This document shows, piece after piece, positions 1-64,000 of a DNA stretch of 64,000 bases. This DNA comes from a virus (Duplodnaviria; Heunggongvirae; Uroviricota; Caudoviricetes). The translations under genes and the position numbers were made by a program. The stretch is from the IMG/VR virus record IMGVR_UViG_3300031133_000383, positions 186,635 to 250,634 of that record; one strand, given 5' to 3'. Every line of letters begins with the position of its first letter. Positions within the stretch are counted from its first letter, which is position 1. The notes under the pieces were generated by a model. The model saw only the letters and a list, made by a program, of their open reading frames with translations. It did not search any database and was not told the origin of the DNA.

Positions 1-246
1 ACCTATATAATCAAAAGCAAAAGCAAAAGATAGTGATTTATTATTTTTGTCACAAAAAATCATTATGAAATCTGATTGAACACCCTTGGTGCTGCTTTTA
101 TTGTCTTGTTGGTATATATAAGGAATTGATTTTGCGTCTGCTTTGTTGAGATTTACTTGATCAGCAACAGAGCGTACATGATAACGGAAATTATCAAGTC
201 CAGTTTTATAGCGAGACATTGGTGTAATAGGTTTGATATCTTTCAT
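1..246 (-). CDS. hypothetical protein, 5' part only (gene runs off left edge)
   Basis: Reverse-strand ATG at 246 (MKDIKPITPMSRYKTG...) preceded by GGAGA SD. Open to window edge. Confidence 0.5.
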   Translation of the reverse strand, partial: MKDIKPITPMSRYKTGLDNFRYHVRSVADQVNLNKADAKSIPYIYQQDNKSSTKGVQSDFIMIFCDKNNKSLSFAFAFDYIG

Positions 247-383
247 TTTTTCTCCAATTCTGTGTTATTTATAGTTATTATAGCACGATAATATTTTTTT
301 TTAAAGCAAATTTGCAAATTAAAAACGTTGAGAAAAATAGTTTAATATGATATTATGATGTTCAATTTATAGAGGTATCGACA

Positions 384-1151
384 GTGGCTATCGCAATTTC
401 TTCTTATTTGTCTATTTTAATCAGTGATTTAAAAGAATTGGATACTAACACAAACTATTACTTGAAACAAAACCATAAACATGCTTATATTTTTAGAAAA
501 ATCATGACCACTCTTTCTGATGATTTGCTTTTATTTGGTTCAGATAAATTGATCAATGTTGATATCTTGATTGATCCTTTGCAATTTCATCTTGATCTTA
601 GTGAGTCTTTCCCTTTCATGTCAGGAGCCTCTTTAACATTTTCTTATTTTGATTTTGAAGATGACAACAGTATTTGTATGATGATTGATAATGCAATAAT
701 TAAGTCGTTAAAAGATAATACCAGCCATCTAGAATGCCAGATTGATGATTATCAACGTCTATTTAAGAATATTCAATATGTAGACCAATTATTGAGATTG
801 AACAATGCTCTCTTATTGCATTTGAAAAAAGCGGAATACTCATTGACTACGCATGGAGAAAGAGATGACTTTGAATATTTTCGTATTGAGAAAAATTGTC
901 TTCTTGAACCATCAGTTAATATTCAAACGCCTATGTTTACTTTCTTTATTAAGCATGATCACATATTATTAAAGTTTAAAGATAATGCAGTTAAAATGAA
1001 TATTAAGCATAACAGTAATAAAAACTACTTAAACACGCTGGAACAAATGTTTATTGTGTTATTCAAAAATGAAGATTTAGAAGATGCCTTATTAAATAAA
1101 ATTAACAGCATAGACGATTTGGCTATTATTCTTCCAATGATGTTTACATAA
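384..1151 (+). CDS. hypothetical protein (GTG start)
   Basis: 255-aa ORF, AGAGG SD 8 nt upstream of GTG. Followed by hairpin terminator at 1219-1248. Confidence 0.5.
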   Translation: MAIAISSYLSILISDLKELDTNTNYYLKQNHKHAYIFRKIMTTLSDDLLLFGSDKLINVDILIDPLQFHLDLSESFPFMSGASLTFSYFDFEDDNSICMMIDNAIIKSLKDNTSHLECQIDDYQRLFKNIQYVDQLLRLNNALLLHLKKAEYSLTTHGERDDFEYFRIEKNCLLEPSVNIQTPMFTFFIKHDHILLKFKDNAVKMNIKHNSNKNYLNTLEQMFIVLFKNEDLEDALLNKINSIDDLAIILPMMFT

Positions 1152-1218
1152 GAGTTCTATGAAATAGCTAATATTATACTGAGTACTTAACTTTGCAATT
1201 TATGTTTCCATTTGAGTA

Positions 1219-1248
1219 AAAAAAACCAGTACGGATACTGGTTTTTGT
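1219..1248. terminator. rho-independent terminator hairpin (ccagtacggatactgg) with A/T runs on both sides
   Basis: Perfect 6-bp stem with T-run on plus strand (ends gene 384-1151) and an 8-T run on minus strand. Confidence 0.6.
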
Positions 1249-1310
1249 AAGGAAAGCGATCAGGTAGTGTCTGCCAATAGAATTAGAAGGAACCATAATC
1301 ATAGCCTGAC
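1219..1310 (-). ncRNA. candidate small RNA, single-module member of the intergenic repeat family
   Basis: Minus strand: TTGACT-17-TACTAT promoter (plus coords 1345-1316). Conserved box2rc AGGCTATGATTATGGTTCCTTCTAA and box1rc CACCTGATCGCTTTCCTT. Intrinsic terminator at 3' end. Related to units at 4386-4882. Confidence 0.35.
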
Positions 1311-1403
1311 TCATATAGTATTGCACTTTTCTCGAAAAAGTCAATGAATATTGTAGTAAACAATAATCTTTTATGGTATAATTATTTTTTAAAAGGTTGA
1401 CGA

Positions 1404-2147
1404 ATGACTAAAACCATTGAAATTAAACCAACTGTTTCAAAAAGTATTTATTTGACAGACTTTCAATACGTTACCATCGATGGTGTTGGCATTGATCAAA
1501 TGACTAAAATAAATCAATTTTTAACAGAATTATCACTGGACATTCTATCAGTACGTACTGATTTTTCACCTAAATGTATTATTGATATAAAAGATAATGT
1601 TTTTCAAATAAAATTAGGTGTATCTTATCCTTTTATTTATCATGATACTGTTTTTTTCTGTGATCTTGCTGAACCTTATTTTGATACCCATCATTTGGGA
1701 AATGCTTTAAATAGATGGCAAAACTGTAATCAATTTTTTTTGTTTATGGAAATTGATAAAATTAATAAATTGTTTGATAATGTTCGATTATTCGAGAAAG
1801 CAATGGGTTTTCAAGGAAAAATAATAGACTTGTTCAAGAAAAAAACATTATCAGCCGCATCAATCTATAATCCTTTTATGCTTTCATTTTTTGAAATTTC
1901 CTATTCATTTGAAGATTATGCTGTCTTAATCGAAGATACTGTTAATACCGACATATGTATTACGATCACATCAGATGATATAGTTTTTAAAGGTTACAAC
2001 TCAAAAAATGATTTTGATTTAAGCAATGAAGACAACTTTATAGAGGACATTACTAAACATTTTCTATCTTTTTATCCTGAAAGTATGGTAGAATATGCTG
2101 ATTCATTGCCTGAATTTATCAAAATAATTGAAATGCAATATTATTAA
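1404..2147 (+). CDS. hypothetical protein, C-terminal-tail family (…EFIKIIEMQYY)
   Basis: 247-aa ORF with upstream TGGTATAAT -10 and SD. Shares family C-terminal motif. Confidence 0.6.
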   Translation: MTKTIEIKPTVSKSIYLTDFQYVTIDGVGIDQMTKINQFLTELSLDILSVRTDFSPKCIIDIKDNVFQIKLGVSYPFIYHDTVFFCDLAEPYFDTHHLGNALNRWQNCNQFFLFMEIDKINKLFDNVRLFEKAMGFQGKIIDLFKKKTLSAASIYNPFMLSFFEISYSFEDYAVLIEDTVNTDICITITSDDIVFKGYNSKNDFDLSNEDNFIEDITKHFLSFYPESMVEYADSLPEFIKIIEMQYY

Positions 2148-2163
2148 TATAGGAAATTAGACC

Positions 2164-62902: not shown

Positions 62903-62924
62903 TACAAATATGTTGTAGTGTATT

Positions 62925-62951
62925 AAAGGCAGATTTTAATCTGCCTTTTTT
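62925..62951 (+). terminator. rho-independent terminator aaaggcagattttaatctgccttttttatt
   Basis: 8-bp stem + T-run. Confidence 0.75.
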
Positions 62952-63047
62952 ATTATCTAATGTTAGTTGGTCTGATTTTATTGGGCATTCATTGAAAATT
63001 ATCAAATTTGTGTTATTGTTTAAAATTAATTAATATTGGAGACAATA

Positions 63048-63263
63048 ATGGTTAAATTGATTTTTTCAAAATTGGTCAGTGATATGGTACAGGAACAATA
63101 TGTAGGTCGTGTTATTATGGAACCAGTAGAGCATAGAGGCTGTGTCATCAAACAATGTGACATTAAAGTTGGATTGAATTCAGACGTAAAACTCACATTT
63201 CATTTTTCAAATAATTCAAATTCTTTATGTATTTCTGATGTAGGTCATGTTGTTGTAGCTTGA
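63048..63263 (+). CDS. small hypothetical protein (71 aa)
   Basis: GGAGA SD. Confidence 0.45.
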   Translation: MVKLIFSKLVSDMVQEQYVGRVIMEPVEHRGCVIKQCDIKVGLNSDVKLTFHFSNNSNSLCISDVGHVVVA

Positions 63264-63316
63264 TATCATACTCAATTTCATGTATAATCAGTACATTGTT
63301 TATAGAGGATTGACAA

Positions 63317-63532
63317 ATGGCTTACAAAAAACATATTACAAAAAACAATGCTGCCGAATCATGGGCCTTTGGCGTTATTGGTGGAATCTGTAAAAGTTAC
63401 AATATCAATCCTGTGATTCCTCGAATTATTTTTCTCATTTCTATTTTTGCATGGGGGCTACCACTCTGTGCTTATGTTATACTGGCTTTTTTTATGAAAA
63501 GCGAATCAGAAGTAGATGATCAAAACCATTAA
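63317..63532 (+). CDS. PspC-domain small membrane protein
   Basis: WAFGVIGGICKSYNINPVIPRIIFLISIFAWGLPLCAYVILAFF fits PspC N-terminal domain pattern. GAGGA SD. Confidence 0.5.
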   Translation: MAYKKHITKNNAAESWAFGVIGGICKSYNINPVIPRIIFLISIFAWGLPLCAYVILAFFMKSESEVDDQNH

Positions 63533-63555
63533 TCTTATTGCATGTCGGAGTTATT

Positions 63556-64000
63556 ATGCCACTTAAAATTTATATCGCTGGTCCTGATGTTTTTTACCCT
63601 GATGCAGTCGAAGTGGGTATCGCTAAACGTAAAATTTGTGAAAAACATGGATTTAAAGGTATCTTTCCACTGGACCTCTTACCAAATGATCTATTTACTT
63701 CAAAGTATGACCACAATCAACAAGCTAAAATTATTCAGAAAGCATGTATTGATGGAATTCGTGATTGTGATATTCTTGTTGCTAACATGACTCCTTTCCG
63801 GGGAACTGGTATGGATAATGGAACGGCTGTTGAAATGGGGGCCGCTCACATGATTAACAAACCTGTTTTTGGTTATTCTGCTGATGGGCGGTCTTATCTT
63901 GACAAGGTAGTAAGTGCTCAGGGTGATTGTACTGTTTCTGAAGGTAACTCATATGACTCCAAGGGTCAATTGATTGAGGATTTCAATAAAATCGATAACT
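63556..64000 (+). CDS. nucleoside 2-deoxyribosyltransferase family protein (3' end beyond window)
   Basis: MPLKIYIAGPDVFYPD…DNGTAVEMGAAH (Nuc_deoxyrib_tr motifs). GGAG SD. Not in ORF list because no stop within window. Confidence 0.75.
   Translation, partial: MPLKIYIAGPDVFYPDAVEVGIAKRKICEKHGFKGIFPLDLLPNDLFTSKYDHNQQAKIIQKACIDGIRDCDILVANMTPFRGTGMDNGTAVEMGAAHMINKPVFGYSADGRSYLDKVVSAQGDCTVSEGNSYDSKGQLIEDFNKIDN

Follow-up and report, generated by a model that had tools for sequence, protein, structure and literature searches.

A 64-kb ORFan-rich stretch of metagenomic DNA, possibly from the auxiliary part of a giant virus-like element with a Gram-negative host

The DNA analyzed here is a 64,000-nucleotide stretch (the window) that lies on the 322,998-bp ENA metagenome contig ERZ27247402:k141_253576, where window position equals record position minus 186,630. 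We give an even chance to the reading that the window comes from a giant extrachromosomal element that is virus-like, AT rich, and dominated by open reading frames (ORFs) without recognizable family (ORFans). The window would be an auxiliary region of this element, devoted to self-sufficiency and host interaction, and the host would be Gram negative. Such an element would be a megaphage or a bacterial counterpart of the Borgs, and neither a conventional jumbo phage nor a cell. The more specific proposal that the lineage is a bacterial virus or virus-like element with a 1.5- to 1.9-Mb genome and its own synthetases, tRNAs, chaperone, repair enzymes, and secretion-related enzymes is tentative and rather doubtful. 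The recognizable genes, as read from their predicted products, sort into four kits. Translation support comprises SerRS, TyrRS, an editing-less ThrRS, and three tRNAs in the window, with three tRNA-Ser and two tRNA-Tyr genes further on. End healing and sealing is represented by a PNKP-type phosphatase, two HAD_SAK_2 proteins, a Pol-beta nucleotidyltransferase, and an accessory NAD+-dependent ligase. Nucleotide-pool control would fall to Nudix, MazG-like, deoxyribosyltransferase, and MYG1 proteins, and envelope proteostasis to SohB, SPFH, and PspC proteins encoded beside secreted repeat proteins. In the proposed mechanism, the tRNAs, synthetases, and repair enzymes would keep translation of the AT-rich element genes running and could mend or replace tRNAs attacked by host defenses, while a large cytoplasmic protein family and a secreted family would act on the host. 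We favor this reading because of the gene content, the clustering of tRNAs with their cognate synthetases, the mixed origins of the genes, and the missing core functions.

Proteins of the window also occur on a 604,313-bp contig and on short contigs of JGI, ENA, and Logan samples; these three collections were the only sources of the window proteins checked. The DNA read comprised the window and 10 kb on either side (locus L009 on the left and L012 on the right), which is 84 kb with about 100 genes and 5 to 15% of the replicon. Relatives were covered through about 190 kb of syntenic stretches in ten loci. Pfam and NCBIfam scans were pooled, and family results are given among the matches listed (top 25 families). 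The window has a GC content of about 31% and 84 called ORFs, 78 of them credible. It is 90% coding, with 1.2 to 1.3 genes per kb and a mean product of about 230 to 250 amino acids (aa), an architecture that resembles that of viruses. About 60 of the 78 credible ORFs have no Pfam or PHROG match, in line with the more than 50 ORFans counted by the initial annotation, and Pfam matches reach about 16 to 18% of genes in the window genome and its relatives alike. TGA, TAA, and TAG are all in use as stop codons. An alternative genetic code was considered and rejected, the synthetases and ligase being intact under the standard code, which was kept because genes stop cleanly at TGA and ribosome-binding sites follow.

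Every gene that the initial annotation had recognized from the letters alone is present by Pfam, PHROG, or NCBIfam matches and alignments: three aminoacyl-tRNA synthetases, one of them truncated; a tRNA cluster; a compact NAD-ligase; a PNKP-like HAD phosphatase; MYG1, Nudix, and nucleoside 2-deoxyribosyltransferase genes; a 2-oxoglutarate (2OG) oxygenase-like gene; an S49 peptidase; and SPFH and PspC genes. Two of the synthetases are full length. SerRS (44106..45389, plus strand) contains the Pfam domains Seryl_tRNA_N and tRNA-synt_2b and matches TIGR00414 at an E value of 2e-151; among 80 loci listed from the GTDB species representatives, its top identity is 54%, and most of these loci belong to Gamma- and Betaproteobacteria. 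Identity to many proteobacteria is about 50 to 54%. TyrRS (56416..57675, plus strand; Pfam tRNA-synt_1b, SYY_C-terminal, and S4) reaches 423 bits with the top-scoring solved TyrRS, and the next group of bacterial TyrRS follows at 393 bits. The third enzyme, ThrRS (22204..23364, minus strand; 386 aa), consists of the catalytic and anticodon-binding domains only (Pfam tRNA-synt_2b and HGTP_anticodon). It aligns only from residue ~245 of full-length enzymes onward (247 to 611 of a 641-aa ThrRS) and lacks the N-terminal TGS and editing domains by which canonical bacterial ThrRS is defined. The same short form is found in relatives, where it is 70 to 84% identical. The gene upstream of it, on the opposite strand, starts 180 bp away, and its neighbors are ORFans rather than infC-rpmI-rplT.

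A tRNA operon at 28248..28514 on the plus strand was called by ARAGORN and confirmed with Rfam. It encodes tRNA-Pro(UGG), a tRNA-Lys(UUU)-like gene, and tRNA-Ser(UGA), with Rfam scores of 61.8, 43.1, and 59.9 bits, respectively, and a promoter-like site lies ahead of it at ~28190 to 28220. The tRNA-Lys(UUU)-like gene (28340-28417) has a 9-nucleotide (nt) anticodon loop, AAAUUUUCG, where the Rfam covariance model has 7 nt; judging by this sequence, the product may decode with a frameshift, serve as a decoy, or be a decayed tRNA. A second array encodes Ser(CGA), Ser(GCU), Tyr(GUA) twice, and Ser(UGA) at L012 19608-20205, about 9.6 to 10.2 kb beyond the right end of the window, and reaches the end of the DNA read. 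Together with the window tRNA-Ser, therefore, six of the eight tRNAs are cognate to SerRS and TyrRS. Two minor observations concern the same region. A match to sX4, a proteobacterial small RNA, at 28413-28561 is sub-threshold in Rfam (43 bits versus a gathering score of 70) and is probably an artifact because the aligned stretch largely coincides with tRNA-Ser. At ~28586 to 28596, the motif GGTTCGAATCC resembles a tRNA T-loop, and no tRNA was called at that site.

A full-length DnaK is encoded at L009 5790-7691, about 3.3 to 5.2 kb left of the window. Its score against Escherichia coli DnaK is 907 bits, and its identity is 73% to a Pseudomonas-type DnaK and about 55% to Firmicute copies, so that its sequence points clearly to a proteobacterial origin. 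The same figures led us to reject an affinity with Dependentiae, one of two groups named by the initial annotation as possible likenesses; for the other, Legionellales, the SerRS matches listed reveal no specific affinity. When placed taxonomically, as had been proposed, SerRS and TyrRS lean to the Gamma- and Betaproteobacteria, as do DnaK and ThrRS. The dnaK gene has neither grpE nor dnaJ as a neighbor, and no DnaJ is encoded downstream. GrpE was considered for the gene upstream of dnaK and rejected; that gene is likely a member of the C-terminal-helix family described below, ending ...IIRALLI. GC content at third codon positions is 0.23 ± 0.03 for the ORFans, 0.24 for DnaK, 0.21 for ThrRS, and 0.28 to 0.30 for SerRS and TyrRS.

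The DNA ligase (16513..18384, plus strand; 623 aa) has Pfam adenylation, OB, and BRCT domains and is of the accessory NAD+-dependent type. It aligns with E. coli LigA at 190 bits over residues 212 to 603 alone, which falls short of a canonical LigA; it matches the LigA model TIGR00575 at an E value of 7.5e-100 in a pooled table that states no cutoff. Its closest relatives are 19 metagenomic clusters at 63 to 73% identity. Next are proteins annotated "BRCT domain-containing protein/DNA ligase" from Desulfobacterota and Myxococcota at 43 to 50%, and copies on 230- to 320-kb gammaproteobacterial plasmids (PLSDB) are 36 to 40% identical. The ligase did not match itself in the homology search because its 90% cluster is represented by a 68-aa fragment. 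The compact NAD-ligase of the initial annotation is thus present and belongs to an accessory clade rather than to canonical LigA. From these comparisons, the origins of the cell-like genes appear to be mixed, with a Pseudomonas-type DnaK, a proteobacterial SerRS, and a ligase closest to Desulfobacterota and plasmid copies. Taken together, the three synthetases, DnaK, ligase, and eight tRNAs look like the collections carried by giant viruses and not like a sample of a cellular core.

The end-healing enzyme (8137..9309, plus strand) has two domains. Its phosphatase half is of the PNKP type (Pfam HAD_PNKP and Acid_phosphat_B), and phrog_415 and phrog_505, both "polynucleotide kinase," cover residues 206 to 395 only. 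There is no kinase domain; the N-terminal 200 residues contain a motif, HGSENSLDVDAY, of the type G-S...D-x-D, which suggests that this region is nucleotidyltransferase-like. The enzyme is 72.6% identical in relative L101. A separate nucleotidyltransferase of the Pol-beta superfamily (25011..26108, minus strand; phrog_24943, E = 3e-34) is 59 to 74% identical in relatives and 27 to 36% identical to proteins of pPa_SNUABM_DT01, ME3, and LR756501/LR756503/LR756504, phages of 235 to 735 kb.

Genes for nucleotide-pool enzymes lie toward the right end of the window, all on the plus strand. They encode a Nudix hydrolase (54744..55133; Pfam NUDIX, 30% identical to the Nudix protein of Xoo-sp13), a protein with a weak MazG-like N-terminal domain (59472..60263; phrog_5164 and phrog_1247, with Pfam MazG below cutoff at E = 0.002), a putative exonuclease of the MYG1 (UPF0160) family (61997..62902; Pfam MYG1_exonuc, E = 4e-47), and a nucleoside 2-deoxyribosyltransferase (63556..64000; Pfam Nuc_deoxyrib_tr). 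The last of these is cut by the window end and continues in the flank (L012 10240-10797), with its stop at window-equivalent position 64113. Nearby, a small 2OG-Fe(II)-oxygenase-like protein (58438..58812, plus strand) was recognized through phrog_13746 (E = 1.6e-36) and jumbo-phage homologs, with no Pfam match. It is 42 to 47% identical to proteins of Lu11, RP12/RP31, FLC9, Phabio, and nt-1 and about 40% identical to the product of a Xanthomonas phage XaC1 gene annotated as 2OG-Fe(II) oxygenase; the gene is common to at least 15 jumbo phages.

The envelope kit comprises three further plus-strand genes. The S49 serine peptidase (50608..51498; Pfam Peptidase_S49, S49_N, and NfeD1b_N) is of the SohB type, matching NF008745 "protease SohB" at an E value of 1.4e-62 as well as phrog_53. 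An HflK-like SPFH/Band-7 membrane protein (31574..32473) matches Pfam Band_7 at 5e-29 and phrog_200, with TIGR01933 (hflK) below cutoff at 6e-22. The third gene encodes a small membrane protein with a PspC domain (63317..63532; Pfam PspC).

Expression signals are of bacterial type. Near-consensus sigma-70 promoters (TTGACA, 17 nt, TATAAT, often with an extended -10 TG) stand before many genes, and Shine-Dalgarno sites of the AGGAG type are common 5 to 9 nt ahead of start codons. A strict -35/-10 match was found 5 to 120 nt upstream of 22 of the 78 genes, a 3.7-fold enrichment relative to the rest of the sequence, and a hairpin with a T-run follows 18 of the 78. The initial annotation was therefore too strong in crediting nearly all genes with a sigma70 promoter and an intrinsic terminator of their own. 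A generic scan of the first 20 kb gave modest excesses over shuffled sequence for both promoters (137 versus 116 ± 9) and terminators (13 versus 6.3 ± 2.4). Judged by these signals, expression relies on bacterial machinery, with sigma-70-type promoters driving transcription and Shine-Dalgarno sites directing translation.

Much of the ORFan content belongs to one divergent, fast-evolving, lineage-specific family that is recognizable by its C-terminal helix. When the protein ends are aligned on the right, they share a pattern of two hydrophobic residues, then a variable position, Met, two more residues, and Ile, Tyr, or Phe at the end (for example, ...IIEMQYY, ...ILKMYNY, and ...LCEMINI), often with an acidic "LSxEE"-like stretch ahead. 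Of 100 proteins, 24 carry Met at position -4 (background frequency of Met, 2.1%; binomial P = 6e-19), and among ORFs of relatives 47 of 127 do so. With at least 26 members, the family accounts for between a quarter and a third of the genes. Members are 190 to 290 aa long, lack a signal peptide, stand in same-strand arrays, and are barely alike mutually; their orthologs in relatives are 22 to 39% identical. A profile of the 26 members, searched against 1.84 billion representative proteins, returned 18 hits that are window members or strain or species variants, including one obvious ortholog from a related strain or species; this profile is too weak to detect paralogs elsewhere. In an AlphaFold2 model (pLDDT 63), a long helix is accompanied by an antiparallel sheet of five strands and by a C-terminal helix predicted with confidence; the model has no convincing structural neighbor.

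The arrays of this family are all on the plus strand. Three divergent members at 384-1151, 1404-2147, and 2164-3000, linked by phmmer and without Pfam or PHROG matches, end ...ILPMMFT, ...IIEMQYY, and ...LLEMIGV. Five tandem members at 18469..22163 end ...LQHMQSI, ...VLKMYIA, ...ILRMICI, ...IIRMYYSN, and ...INEMLDD, and three at 32563..34785 end ...LVKMDNI, ...LRDMINY, and ...LCEMINI. Five more at 40496..44057 (...LYHMNTI, ...LADMITTV, ...TKRMADY, ...LIEIIDFS, and ...LCNMYSY) and another five at 45379..49533 (...LSEMINY, ...MLEIVID, ...VLRIKYT, ...IVEMINI, and ...LLNMMYI) stand on either side of the SerRS gene. A second family consists of four tandem Sec-secreted, Cys-containing repeat paralogs of 427, 277, 277, and 285 aa (36039..40198, plus strand), built of ~75-aa units and 48 to 62% identical in pairs. 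Each has a signal peptide and a near-consensus TTGACA-N17-TATTAT promoter, the first gene contains 222- to 225-bp DNA repeats, and a distant fifth member lies on the minus strand at 57687-58121. The same-strand tandem families described by the initial annotation are thus borne out as the family of at least 26, the secreted four with their distant fifth, and smaller pairs.

The size of the replicon comes from relatives. One of the 19 ligase clusters lies on a 1,843,594-bp ENA contig (ena:ERZ27281805:k141_522346), whose locus is syntenic with the window in its ORFans, ligase, family members, and short ThrRS on the opposite strand; a Pfam match was found in only 4 of 26 genes there. Further relatives are the JGI contigs Ga0308158_10000001 (1,859,102 bp), Ga0247725_1000001 (1,539,155 bp), and Ga0308157_10000049 (520,353 bp) and a 21-kb JGI contig of only 22% GC. 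Across conserved genes, the DNA of the 1.84-Mb contig is about 80% identical to that of the 1.86-Mb contig, and the two therefore represent different species of similar genome size. Between relatives, enzymes are 59 to 84% identical and syntenic ORFans only 22 to 49%, and gene-by-gene synteny is kept across loci of 22% to 34% GC. The window genome itself is at least 604,313 bp; its relatives, at 1.54 to 1.86 Mb, fall outside the 200- to 735-kb range of phages, 735 kb being the largest phage genome in the collection searched. More distant ligase relatives (46 to 50%) are also on annotation-poor contigs, one of them from a hydrothermal vent metagenome, and the NCBI copies of the 63 to 73% ligase clusters that were checked are bulk metagenome assemblies. 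In IMG/VR, scans that used the ligase by itself or either of two alignments turned up no relative of the ligase lineage (best match, 41%), and PLSDB contained no close relative.

Relatives carry extra genes (L100 5407-5937, L118 680-1462, L140 8176-8958, L099 14736-15386, and L138 2637-3383) that are absent from the syntenic stretch of the window. Their products are a 176-aa signal peptidase I, DsbA-like thioredoxin-fold proteins, a Bax1-I/YccA-like protein, an N6/N4 DNA methyltransferase, and an R2K-type ATP-grasp protein, the last at the start of L099 and L139. The S26 peptidase is signal peptidase I (124 bits versus a cutoff of 47) and not TraF.

Links to phages are numerous and scattered. 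Phage accessory families account for about 13 of 100 genes, which are not clustered as in a prophage. Several ORFans have homologs mainly or only in jumbo phages (XacN1/Xoo-sp13, Lu11, RP12, Atu_ph07, and pPa_SNUABM_DT01), and in the flanks phage-family matches were found for a CYTH-like protein, a lipoprotein, and the two HAD_SAK_2 proteins. Only about 5 of 100 proteins match Xoo-sp13, of which 192 kb was compared. At the DNA level, a megablast search of 50,697 INPHARED phage records returned no match beyond 53 bp. That single match, the sole hit of a 24-kb query, lies at 14276-14328 inside a minus-strand ORF and is 92.5% identical to Xanthomonas phage JGB6 49567-49619, which is unannotated there.

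As the initial annotation had stated for the window, no structural or packaging gene is visible; none was found among the ~100 genes of the window and its 10-kb flanks, nor in the ~190 kb of relatives' loci. The large terminase of Xoo-sp13, used as bait, has 1,473 homologs, and contigs of the lineage are absent among the best 120 (≥49% identity); this is therefore not proof of absence, since more distant homologs lie outside the best 120. Ribosomal proteins, RNA polymerase, translation factors, transporters, central metabolism, and an ordinary set of regulators are missing among the matches listed for the ~100 proteins, and the same families are missing among those listed for 48 further proteins of relatives. 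No rRNA, transfer-messenger RNA (tmRNA), RNase P RNA, or signal recognition particle (SRP) RNA was found in 150 kb of loci. Replication-initiation, partition, and conjugation genes are absent from the stretches seen, where a PF07996 "T4SS" match at L009 9024-9863 is sub-threshold (20 bits).

These data bear on the nature of the replicon in opposite directions. That it is the ~1.5- to 1.9-Mb chromosome of a host-dependent, fast-evolving, AT-rich Gram-negative bacterium related to the Gamma- and Betaproteobacteria is a substantial possibility that falls short of being probable. In that case, the synthetases, DnaK, ligase, and tRNAs would serve the bacterium itself as housekeeping genes, its phage-like genes would have been acquired horizontally, and a small conserved core would stand beside huge, diverging paralog families of effectors or surface proteins. 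Replicon size, envelope housekeeping genes, and a coherent proteobacterial affinity are the reasons to favor a bacterium, and several observations accordingly count against an extrachromosomal element. The relatives of 1.54 to 1.86 Mb come from three assemblies, are chromosome sized, and are 2 to 2.5 times larger than the 735-kb phage. IMG/VR yielded no match to the ligase lineage, though three such contigs are in the JGI collection scanned. Genes for signal peptidase I, DsbA-like, SohB, HflK-like, PspC, and Bax1-I proteins are atypical of phages, and DnaK, SerRS, TyrRS, and ThrRS share one taxonomic leaning. Cell-like genes and ORFans are close in third-position GC, in keeping with vertical inheritance within a cell. 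With no virion, packaging, replication-initiation, partition, or conjugation gene seen, nothing positive says "virus" or "plasmid." Haemotropic mycoplasmas are bacteria whose genomes are likewise ORFan dominated with tandem paralog arrays, and parasitic mycoplasmas provide precedents for lost or decayed editing domains in synthetases. A bacterium would also agree with the synteny maintained across relatives of such different GC content and with the Sec-type signal peptides and lipobox. It is harder to reconcile with the lack of any core, transport, or metabolic family among the matches listed and with the lack of structural RNAs. Canonical operon contexts are gone for both dnaK and the ThrRS gene. 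Phage accessory genes are scattered throughout, and the ligase is of an accessory clade with no named-genome protein within 50% identity. The density of tRNAs is estimated at about four times the level usual in small bacterial genomes, with a bias to Ser and Tyr beside SerRS and TyrRS, and one tRNA has an anticodon loop of 9 nt.

An improbable variant is that the window is a large, vertically inherited phage or mobile-element island within the chromosome of a small-genome, AT-rich bacterium. The ligase region does lie in midcontig (893 to 915 kb of 1.84 Mb and 852 to 874 kb of 1.54 Mb), phage-family genes are mixed with cell-like genes, and a third-position GC close to that of the ORFans would fit long residence. 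However, at least 84 kb is anomalous without a boundary, integrase, attachment site, or change in composition; the genes are intact and have strong promoters; and gene-by-gene synteny across relatives of 22% to 34% GC would be unusual for a prophage remnant. The initial annotation had offered a huge phage or giant mobile element, or else a reduced bacterium, and had called the gene combination typical of huge phages. The repertoire is indeed like that of jumbo phages, and the accessory genes shared with them as well as the 323- and 604-kb contigs would suit a conventional tailed phage of 0.3 to 0.7 Mb. Such a phage is nevertheless very unlikely given syntenic relatives of 1.5 to 1.86 Mb, the lack of virion genes in the stretches read, the absence of lineage contigs among the best 120 terminase homologs, and the lack of a DNA-level relative among the phage records and of a ligase-lineage match in IMG/VR. 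A giant virus of a eukaryote (Nucleocytoviricota) has almost no probability left. HSP70, synthetases, NAD+ ligase, Nudix, 2OG oxygenase, and MYG1 are all in the list, and mimivirus-like repertoires resemble it, but such a virus is excluded because of the sigma-70 promoters and Shine-Dalgarno sites. Hairpin and T-run terminators, the lipobox, and bacterial-type signal peptides oppose it as well, and the relatives of the accessory genes are all bacterial or phage. Our preferred reading remains the giant virus-like extrachromosomal element.

Several single genes complete the inventory. A 778-aa protein (4883..7219, minus strand; phrog_33734, E = 2e-151) has counterparts in XacN1 (385 kb) and Xoo-sp13 (309 kb), to which it is about 45% identical across some 90% of its length. 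Its C-terminal part has two groups of distant relatives, the MXAN_6230/SCO0854 RING-domain family and "TerD family" proteins, with NCBIfam NF041916 below its curated cutoff at 2.8e-43 and about 27% identity to a "TerD family protein" of large plasmids. Also common to XacN1 and Xoo-sp13 is a 137-aa protein (34844..35257, plus strand), which is 38.7% identical over its full length to Xoo-sp13 121613-122011 (E = 2e-26), and a 157-aa protein (61388..61861, plus strand; phrog_12204, E = 1.2e-25) is 36% identical to one of Atu_ph07, a 490-kb Agrobacterium phage. Just ahead of the latter, a 169-aa low-complexity protein (60847-61356) is rich in Ser, His, and Asp, ends SSSGDSGGGGD, and has a marginal PHROG match. 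Two adjoining paralogs of 85 to 87 aa (58814-59349) are 36% identical and have no family match; their Cys pairs (CC..C near the N terminus and C.C.CH near the C terminus) suggest that they may be small zinc-binding proteins. A secreted 147-aa protein on the minus strand (29396-29839) has a signal peptide, C-terminal QPVYT-like repeats, and 15-bp and 30-bp tandem repeats in its DNA, and its ortholog in L101 is 54% identical. A 621-aa ORFan (51615-53480) has paralogs of 30 to 34% identity among two tandem pairs of 550- to 600-aa genes in L100 (77-3537 and 13635-17088), and at the matching position in L138 (8763-15694) there is a run of four adjoining genes of 547 to 599 aa. This group looks like another expanding family. 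PADLOC found no credible defense system.

Tandem Repeats Finder (TRF) reported just 6 rows across the 64 kb. One of these (4387-4871, 79% matches) lies in an unusually long noncoding spacer of 574 bp at 4309..4882, where a 251-bp unit is repeated 1.9 times. Each copy carries a strong terminator-like hairpin (4388-4413 and 4637-4664) that is readable on both strands, and no Rfam family matches the spacer at gathering threshold.

If the window does belong to an element, the size ceiling of bacterial viruses and extrachromosomal elements would rise from 0.74 Mb to nearly 2 Mb, and genome gigantism accompanied by translation genes would have arisen in bacteria, as it has in eukaryotic giant viruses and archaeal Borgs. 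A virus of 1.5 to 1.9 Mb would moreover be in the size range of eukaryotic giant viruses and would be a lineage missed by viral and bacterial cataloguing pipelines. If the lineage is bacterial, it would be a deep, uncatalogued relative of the proteobacteria in whose genome fast-evolving paralog families predominate, mixed with phage-type accessory genes, an architecture unusual for an organism with the standard code. On either reading, it is widespread, with at least 19 ligase clusters (63 to 73%) in JGI, ENA, Logan, and NCBI metagenomes and with megabase contigs, and it has no annotated representative in the collections searched. The conserved editing-less ThrRS, the tRNA with a 9-nt loop, and the C-terminal-helix family with its conserved Met are of interest in their own right.

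Among known systems, jumbo and huge phages (XacN1/Xoo-sp13, Atu_ph07, and the 630- to 735-kb metagenomic phages LR756501-LR756504) resemble the window in being AT rich, gene dense, and ORFan rich and in carrying tRNA arrays, synthetases, DnaK, NAD+ ligase, PNKP-type phosphatase, Nudix and MazG proteins, and nucleotidyltransferases, and several of the accessory genes are true homologs at 27 to 47% identity. They differ in that capsid, portal, terminase, and tail genes were not found in about 104 kb of the window genome, in the signal peptidase I, DsbA-like, and SohB proteins of the lineage, and in the 2- to 2.5-times-larger size of its relatives. Haemotropic mycoplasmas and the epitheliocystis agents ("Candidatus Ichthyocystis") have small, AT-rich genomes in which tandem arrays of short paralogs surround scattered housekeeping genes. 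In contrast to such ORFan-rich reduced bacteria, the window uses the standard code with TGA as a stop, its main family lacks a signal peptide, its admixture of phage accessory genes is strong, and the only core genes seen are synthetases, DnaK, and ligase. The accessory LigA-like "BRCT domain-containing protein" of Desulfobacterota and gammaproteobacterial plasmids has the same domain order as the window ligase, whereas the ligases of the window lineage form a tight, separate cluster at 63 to 73% identity. Borgs, the elements of Methanoperedens archaea, differ from the window in that its signals are bacterial and not archaeal and tandem DNA repeats are not pervasive in it. According in part to PMC12660748, Borgs share with this lineage a size of about a megabase, low GC content, genes that mostly lack annotation, long runs of genes on one strand, and lineage-specific families in multiple copies.

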